A stretch of DNA of 62,258 nt, the filler included, from Hausera hauseri (Eukaryota): assembly GCA_046269625.1 (NCBI GenBank). It is 9 parts of 9 records of this genome, joined end to end, with 100 filler letters (N's around TTAATTAATTAA, not from the genome) between each part and the next. Parts side by side here need not be neighbours in the genome. Positions count along the whole stretch, not along the records: positions 36,636 to 41,952 come from JBJURY010281618.1; 8 more parts are not named here. One strand, 5' to 3'. The number at the start of each line of letters is the position of its first letter. The stretch's first letter is position 1. This document shows, piece after piece, positions 39,395-40,605 of the stretch. The notes below the pieces were generated by a model. That model was given only the letters and a program-made list of their open reading frames with translations. It did not search any database and was not told where the DNA came from. Both the position numbers and the translations under genes were made by a program.

Positions 39395-40605
39395 ACCTGT
39401 TATGCCTGGTCTAGAGATATTTGGTTGTGTCGCAGTTGGCGTATCTGTTACTCTTTCGCGTTCTCCCGTCCTTACTATATTGGTCATTAGGCTGGTCAGT
39501 CATCCGCCTCTACATTGAGCCTAATTTCCTAACGTATCTTTCAAGATCTTCACGGCTGTCCCGATATTCCGCTCAATCTCTTCTAGATTTTGAGTCTGAT
39601 GATTAATTACTATTATTTTATATAGGAGATATGATATAGCCGTTCGAGAGTTTTGTCGCGTAATTCCAGTTGCAAACACTTTTTCTAAAATATCCAGCTC
39701 ATGCAGTTCATTTATCCGTTCTTCCTCTAAGTTCTCATAGAATTGTCTACTTATTTGTAGCATATTATTACGTAACGTTGTGAACAGTTTACCTGGGATT
39801 ATTGCCTGCTTGTCAAATGAGGCAAATGACGTATGTAGCTTAGCCAATAACGTTCTTAGTAATAGATCTATATCCACCTATTCGGGTGTGCCATTTGTTC
39901 CTGCTAATAATAAACGTCTTACTATTGCTTCGTTCCTATCTTTTCTGTTACGAATGTCACTTATTTTTGTCCCTTTTGGCCTACCTCTTCTCCTAGTTTC
40001 CGTCTAAACTATGACATCTTGCGTACCACCCGTAGGAATTTCTTCTGTTTCGTGTGGATCCACTTCTCTTAAAATATTCTCTTCTGTTGCCTGTGCTTTT
40101 GCCTCTGAATGCATTTCGGTTATCGTTATCGGATTATAGTTCTCACTTCTACATCCAATTCTCAATAATTTATCGTAATTATATAGCGTCCTTCCATAAT
40201 AATTTAGACCATAAGGGCTTCCTTGATAAAAAGGTTTCACCTCCTCAATCTTTTCTCTTAGAGATTGTATATCGTCTGCTTCGTTCATCCTAATGACCCT
40301 CATATCTTGGTTTCCTTCCCTTACCGTTATCCGTATGACTTCATTTTTTTCTTTCTCGTCCTCGGCAGCTTTGGCCAATACTGTCCTGGCTATTTCTCTT
40401 ACAGGACTCGTATCCTGGACTAATAGTACCAATTAAGGTAAGATCTCATTCATCCTTTCTACCGTTACTTTATTGGTAATTATCTTCAATATCGTGGTAG
40501 TCGTTTTATCAACATCGATTATATTATCGGAATCGACAGTAATTACTGCCTGAATGATATCCTCTTCTTCATCTAAATCTACACCTGGATTCCTTATTAC
40601 TTGCT

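Follow-up and report, generated by a model that had tools for sequence, protein, structure and literature searches.

A conserved insert with likely ubiquitin-like and Bcl-2-like domains between Gag and Env of a retroelement in Hausera hauseri

Introduction

On one contig of the Hausera hauseri genome assembly GCA_046269625.1, the gag and env regions of a retroelement are separated by an intervening stretch of sequence. This locus raises three questions: whether the intervening sequence is genuine coding sequence, which domains it encodes, and what these domains could do for an element that carries them between its capsid and its fusion glycoprotein. The original prediction, made from the sequence alone, described a HEAT-like repeat, a ubiquitin-like domain and an AT-hook, and proposed that they were captured modules that might act in polyprotein processing, budding or chromatin tethering.

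Two groups of known elements are relevant for comparison. The passages on Burro (GYPSM1) in PMC6431247 describe giant gypsy-like LTR retrotransposons of planarians, 30 kb long, present in thousands of copies and hard to study, and cite for them Jurka 2007 and Grohme et al. 2018. According to the same passages, a Burro element has one ORF of 4,873-5,140 residues, in which a Gag with two or three knuckles is accompanied by MATH, BIR and ankyrin motifs, with Smc and AIR1 also among the Gag-side cargo. A Ubi2/SUMO-like motif (PF11976) is placed there before a BCL-2 motif, a mononegavirus-like Env lies in frame between BCL2 and the protease, and a dUTPase-like domain, called by HHpred, lies between the protease and the reverse transcriptase (RT). 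The second group comprises the GAG-ENV-POL Ty3/gypsy errantiviruses with an HSV/gB-type ENV, which the main text of PMC13524379 reports from nematodes, bryozoans and flatworms, six of them from Schmidtea.

Results

The analysed sequence

The window, i.e. the whole stretch of DNA that was analysed (62,258 nucleotides), is made up of nine unrelated contigs joined by eight 100-base spacers of the N-linker-N type, and thus neighbourhood across the spacers means nothing. The positions of the features discussed below are collected in Table 1.

Table 1. Features of the gag-insert-env element and of element 1 (positions along the window)
Feature	Position	Strand	Evidence or remark
Contig holding the element of interest	36636-41952		element on minus strand
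gag (capsid-like region, basic tail)	40606-41952	-	Pfam zf-CCHC E 8.7e-5
CCHC knuckle, single, CX2CX4HX4C	41151-41110	-	within gag
Frame break, gag versus insert	~40606-40636	-	
Short helical segment ('HEAT-like' in the original prediction), ~78 residues	40352-40582	-	25% identical to P0007 378-455
Likely ubiquitin-like (beta-grasp) domain	40112-40345	-	34% identical to P0007 460-535
Basic patch with single RGRPK	39899-40000	-	50% identical to P0007 581-615
Likely Bcl-2-like helical domain	39488-39871	-	47% identical to P0007 625-752
Hydrophobic helix, predicted Env signal sequence / Bcl-2-type tail anchor	39320-39397	-	Kyte-Doolittle
env, class III (gB/chuvirus-type) fusion glycoprotein	37596-39325	-	Pfam Monjiviricetes_fusion PF24664 E 2.7e-27, 1.5e-37
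Element 1 contig	9295-15950		
Element 1 distant helical segment, then likely ubiquitin-like domain; frame break between	14650-15064	-	profile matches
Element 1 env	12300-13937	-	PF24664; upstream of pol
Element 1 reverse transcriptase and RNase H	9691-10604	-	RVT_1 E 2.6e-30, RT_RNaseH_2 E 2.2e-21
Spacers	9195-9294, 15951-16050, 23128-23227, 31100-31199, 36536-36635, 41953-42052, 46302-46401, 57452-57551		

Several other sequences were recognised in the window. Two genes are intronless: an O-GlcNAc transferase on the plus strand (19889-21969; two overlapping frames with one frame break, possibly a retrocopy), which is closest in PDB to the human and other animal enzymes, pointing to an invertebrate animal as the probable host, and has a short related fragment at 58192-58338, and a DEAD-box helicase with a GUCT domain (DDX21/50 type) on the minus strand (16585-18183; 532 open codons). 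At 1-3600 (minus strand), 31470-35260 (plus strand) and 59240-62255 (minus strand) lie three decayed pol regions of LTR retrotransposons that belong to a different lineage and are related to one another, with about 63-71% DNA identity in patches. An 11-kb, extremely T-rich satellite with 4-base steps, an AT skew of about -0.9 and many spurious long ORFs occupies 46402-57451, and at 16310-16556 a 64-base unit is repeated in tandem about four times, the copies being 89-96% alike.

Coding state and conservation of the insert

Read on the minus strand from the contig end, the element consists of gag, a frame break, an insert whose frame opens at about 40633, and Env in frame with the insert; the peptides quoted in the original prediction were all found on this strand at their positions. 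Base composition would predict 44 internal stops in the frame 40633-38855 (593 codons), but it contained only 5; the remaining minus-strand frames had 68 and 43. A full HMMER scan of 1,835,955,588 proteins, with the stops of the query read through as X, revealed a sole relative, P0007, a protein of 1,130 residues that forms a singleton cluster. P0007 is one unbroken natural chain of gag, insert and the front of Env, with one CCHC and with Env starting near residue 810. The insert aligned with it from end to end (131 of 363 residues identical, 36%, E 2e-52), gag aligned with P0007 21-182 (81/162, 50%) and the front of Env with P0007 765-961 (92/200, 46%). In addition to the segments listed in Table 1, identity was 41% in the linker after the ubiquitin-like part, 23% in the linker after the second helical domain, 39% in the hydrophobic segment and 50% at the Env N-terminus. 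The low stop count and the end-to-end alignment bear out the proposal that conserved accessory cargo sits between Gag and Env, and the insert is genuine coding sequence.

In two public sequencing runs, 31,414 of 15,501,002 and 2,782 of 9,551,390 contigs matched this contig at a likeness of at least 80%, where contig depth does not equal copy number and one of the two runs may be the window's own source. All 30 bins into which the element was divided, insert included, were covered by contigs in both runs; the insert is therefore a property of the whole element family and not of the window copy alone. Two of the five stop sites fell among the 40 difference positions listed out of 1,406, and nearly all the depth at these sites differed from the window, indicating that those two breaks are peculiar to the window copy. 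With its stops and frame breaks, the window copy itself is dead.

Searches by shared words found no homologue of the insert and no longer relative of Env, and with P0007 as the query they returned only P0007 itself (best 7,998 candidates scored). Locus scans of viral contigs, metagenomes and prokaryote genomes gave no confirmed relative, no phage matched the element, and NCBIfam gave one weak and irrelevant match.

The part of P0007 aligned with the window gag (21-182) matched the Gag-derived dArc2 capsid (E 0.0068). At the other end, the env frame, which begins in frame with the insert, is interrupted further on by stops and frame shifts; PF24664 scored above its curated cut-off in both elements of the window and in P0007. 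The loose ends of the aligned public-run contigs indicated that the element meets a different repeat at about 37595, so that its pol is absent from the contig. No pol was seen in the contig (36636-41952) or in the P0007 chain, and no LTR was found in the contigs. The element is a repeated one and likely of the Gag-Env-Pol Ty3/gypsy type. Troyka LTR retrotransposons, which are described in PMC12440569 as having no envelope gene and a CX2CX8-10HX4C knuckle, were considered and ruled out by the env and the CX2CX4HX4C knuckle found here. The repeat that adjoins env (36636-37593) represents the 3' portion of a second gag, in which three or four CCHC-like knuckles follow one another at short distances, and its summed contig depth is several times that over the rest of the contig.

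Helical segment and basic patch

The short helical segment that opens the insert was helical in a low-confidence AlphaFold model and carries one stop (40435-40433). Pfam gave no HEAT/ARM match for it at E<=1, nor at E<=10, and no internal repeat was detected, as 338 and 1816 of 2000 shuffles scored equally well in the two comparisons. With no profile match and no half-to-half similarity, a HEAT repeat is not supported, and the segment is regarded as a conserved helical part of unassigned family.

The basic patch is preceded by a stop (40006-40004) and contains RRRGRPK at 39994-39974 on the minus strand, with the RGRPK core kept at P0007 585-589. With the satellite left aside, the six-frame translation of the window (102,012 residues) contained no other RGRP, and when the insert was shuffled 100,000 times, the motif arose in 297 of the shuffled sequences. 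Pfam AT_hook did not match the window or P0007, and the core was absent from the tested frame of element 1 (P0006). The predicted AT-hook core is thus present as R-G-R-P with basic flanks and is conserved in P0007, but it is a single motif and is missing from the tested element-1 frame.

Ubiquitin-like domain

The window copy alone gave no ubiquitin-like match in Pfam or PDB, and PDB sequence searches with the window's ubiquitin-like ORFs returned nothing relevant. In P0007, the Pfam ubiquitin family matched residues 473-522 with E 0.031 (14.5 bits versus a curated cut-off of 25.4), and a two-sequence profile of the window and P0007 aligned to the whole RAD23A UBL (E 0.15, profile 463-538). 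Among the language-model neighbours (atlas scores all below 0.9), ubiquitin and Rad60-SLD (PF11976) clusters were found at 0.81-0.84 for the window ORF and at 0.82-0.84 for the element-1 ORF, the latter having higher scores with CLU_N (0.86, its best named family) and with unnamed clusters (0.87). These four weak but concordant leads, i.e. Pfam, RAD23A and the two language-model lists, make a ubiquitin-like fold likely. In the single-sequence AlphaFold model of whole P0007 (pLDDT 34), the ubiquitin-like part was drawn as a helix, and the Foldseek matches of this model were meaningless. The ubiquitin beta-grasp pattern noticed earlier thus gained consistent weak matches, but all of them are sub-threshold and the model shows a helix there.

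The only GG of P0007 is at residue 746 and none ends its ubiquitin-like domain. In the window, about 30 residues separate the end of the domain from the GG nearest to it, and this GG is not conserved. The absence of a C-terminal di-glycine, which had been pointed out before, was therefore confirmed in P0007. Since no di-glycine is conserved, the domain, as far as can be judged from its sequence, is probably integral and not cut by a deubiquitinase. It resembles the RAD23A UBL and Rad60-SLD (PF11976) in the weak full-length alignment to RAD23A and in having no terminal di-glycine; it differs from them in a score below the cut-off and in that the beta-grasp was not reproduced by the model.

These results also bear on the combination that was first put forward, in which a HEAT repeat would stand next to a ubiquitin serving as a processing signal for a host protease, as in pestiviruses, and an AT-hook would tether the element to chromatin. 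A ubiquitin-like domain does lie inside a polyprotein, and RGRPK is conserved in two families. However, no di-glycine is conserved after the domain, so that pestivirus-style processing is not supported; there is no HEAT match and no internal repeat, and the single AT-hook core is located in a Gag-Env precursor and not on an integrase, besides being absent from the tested element-1 frame. We consider this explanation very improbable.

Bcl-2-like domain and hydrophobic helix

Downstream of the basic patch, a likely Bcl-2-like domain was overlooked in the original prediction. It is the best-conserved part of the insert; a stop at 39880-39878 precedes it and two further stops (39523-39521 and 39502-39500) break its last helices. 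For the window copy alone, with these two stops in the last helices, Pfam gave no Bcl-2 match. When P0007 was searched as a whole, Pfam Bcl-2 (PF00452) gave a match with E 0.055; on a 160-residue slice of it this family was the top match (E 0.0031), with an alignment over model positions 5-100 of 100 and a score of 18.5 bits, below the curated cut-off of 31.4.

An AlphaFold model of the slice built from two sequences showed eight helices (pLDDT 40). Of the 46 matches listed by Foldseek for this model, 15 were Bcl-2-family chains of six proteins (Bcl-2, Bax, Mcl-1, A1, Bak and the tanapoxvirus homologue), with E 1.2-4.4, TM of at most 0.42, 128-169 aligned columns and 12-19% identity; none was significant, the best E over all the matches listed being 0.88. 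The two-sequence profile of the slice found 0 PDB sequences at E<=10, and VIA-align gave a best Z of 7.4, within the background for helical models, with no Bcl-2 chain among its best 50 matches. Taken with the Pfam matches, we hold a Bcl-2-like fold at this position to be likely.

Such results could also arise if the resemblance to Bcl-2, and perhaps that to ubiquitin, were due to chance and the insert were a lineage-specific helical extension of Gag: every domain match is sub-threshold, the models are of low confidence and bundles of helices readily give matches to all sorts of structures. Against this, the two independent weak calls occur in an order already published for Burro (passages on Burro in PMC6431247), ubiquitin-type neighbours were obtained for two barely related sequences, and Bcl-2-family chains were enriched among the Foldseek matches listed. 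Chance resemblance thus seems improbable to us.

Kyte-Doolittle analysis with a 17-residue span gave a single peak above 1.6 both in the window read-through (2.07) and in P0007 (1.92). The helix at this peak, the only hydrophobic one that the chain has had so far, lies about 35 residues after the Bcl-2-like domain and immediately before the first Env-profile residue. Bcl-2 proteins usually carry a C-terminal tail anchor. In common with the Bcl-2 family (PF00452), the domain has eight helices in the low-confidence model, a Pfam match over almost the full length of the family model, and a hydrophobic helix at this distance downstream; the differences are the sub-threshold score, the embedding of the domain in a Gag-Env polyprotein and the location of the helix before the Env ectodomain instead of at the end of the protein.

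Element 1

A second element, regarded earlier as 'copy 1' of the same one, shows 26-51% identity to the gag-insert-env element in four Env stretches, and BLASTP of it against the insert found no stretch at E<0.01. It was therefore rejected as a copy and is treated as a separate family, element 1, to which 23,850 and 1,641 contigs of the two public runs were assigned. Its order is insert-env-pol. The pol was judged by eye to be of the Ty3/gypsy kind, and a protease motif between env and RT was likewise seen only by eye, with no Pfam match.

The helical and ubiquitin-like profiles had their best non-self matches in element 1, with iE 0.23 and 0.47 and in the right order. Among the parallels that had been quoted between the two elements, YRFYFRGR is marginally real (21/2000 shuffles) and LRQLIPTLTKL is weak (the helical match at iE 0.23), but EELIREL/EERINEL is attributable to chance, as the best alignment of the element-1 segment to the P0007 Bcl-2-like domain was equalled by 1773 of 2000 shuffles. 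No Bcl-2-like domain is thus detectable in element 1, suggesting that some elements of this kind can do without the module. Upstream of its helical and ubiquitin-like segments, element 1 has another helical ORF on the minus strand (15338-15949), about 200 residues long and without a significant match in Pfam, which would be additional cargo.

Discussion

The architecture of gag, ubiquitin-like domain, Bcl-2-like domain and Env is already published for Burro; the present element is a compact variant of it. The core order is the same, from a CCHC Gag through the ubiquitin-like and Bcl-2-like domains to an in-frame Env, although the domain matches here are sub-threshold. Many matching public-run contigs here may be set beside the thousands of copies stated in the passages on Burro in PMC6431247. 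Of the Burro layout with Env in frame and before pol, the Gag-Env frame was seen in P0007 and env before RT in element 1, i.e. not both in one element. From Gag to Env there are about 810 residues with one knuckle in P0007, versus an ORF of 4,873-5,140 residues with two or three knuckles. No match to MATH, BIR, ankyrin or dUTPase was found at E<=0.1 in the two contigs, P0007 had no such Pfam cargo match, and the decayed spacer of element 1 gave no Pfam match to dUTPase. We would thus call the window element Burro-like in its layout and place it outside Burro by its size and cargo.

With the GAG-ENV-POL errantiviruses of PMC13524379 our elements share a compact size and, in element 1, a gB/chuvirus-type Env before pol. 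The main text of that paper, in which ubiquitin, Bcl, AT-hook, polyprotein and fused have 0 occurrences, makes no mention of cargo between the two genes; a motif search of its supplements found nothing, the full sequences being held in an outside repository. Judged from literature listings, no other LTR element with a Bcl-2 or ubiquitin-like module was found, nor was a compact Burro-like version, although the original Burro/GYPSM1 papers, Sacco 2022 or deposited sequence files could contain one of the latter.

To explain the insert, we lean, with modest confidence, towards a conserved module with ubiquitin-like and Bcl-2-like domains that is made as part of one polyprotein, uses a single helix twice and keeps the producing cell alive. 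Gag, insert and Env would be translated as one chain, as seen in P0007; Env would be directed into the ER by the single hydrophobic helix, used as an internal signal sequence. After cleavage, the helix would stay behind as the C-terminal anchor of a Gag-UBL-Bcl-2-like protein, in the position that a Bcl-2 tail anchor usually takes. The modules would be released by the element's own protease and not by a deubiquitinase. The Bcl-2-like module may bind host pro-death BH3 proteins, so that the producing cell survives, the ubiquitin-like domain may serve as a non-conjugated binding module, and RGRPK may be a nucleic-acid or nuclear-import patch. Within this scheme, the dual use of the helix as Env signal and Bcl-2 anchor seems rather probable to us, whereas the anti-apoptotic role through host BH3 proteins is put forward more tentatively, as a possibility for which we would not claim even chances.

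The main rival to the anti-apoptotic explanation keeps the same folds and gives them another job: the Bcl-2-like bundle would be a scaffold for membrane targeting or for blocking signalling, e.g. a stand-in for a matrix domain that takes Gag to the Env membrane. Some poxviral proteins with a Bcl-2 fold are not known to act in apoptosis, which counts in favour of such a scaffold, as do the low sequence likeness to Bcl-2 proteins of cells (Foldseek matches listed at 12-19% identity, 0 PDB sequence matches) and the different helical segment that element 1 has at the corresponding place. On the other hand, the Pfam Bcl-2 match covers nearly the whole model, its last motif included, and Burro elements also carry BIR domains (passages on Burro in PMC6431247), suggesting control of apoptosis as a theme. 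On this evidence we consider a scaffold unlikely, and retain the reading of an insert that protects the producing cell.

That reading can be taken one step further, to an origin that we regard as rather doubtful. The captured Bcl-2 protein may have brought its own tail anchor, which was then reused as the Env signal sequence, in a minimal retrovirus-like design from which the giant Burro elements would have expanded later. In such a design, one cleavage would leave a fusogen on the luminal side and, anchored in the membrane, a Gag-UBL-Bcl-2 precursor that would both nucleate budding and block host cell death. The slot before Env would be exchangeable, as the second family found in these runs has kept the ubiquitin-like domain but has other segments beside it.

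In the literature searched, apoptosis-control cargo in retroelements was met only in the 30-kb planarian Burro (passages on Burro in PMC6431247). The natural, unbroken Gag-Env insert of 430 residues is small enough to be expressed and assayed, and therefore opens two questions to direct test: does an LTR retroelement hold back the death of its host cell in the manner of large DNA viruses, and can the tail anchor of a Bcl-2 protein also serve as the signal sequence of an Env?
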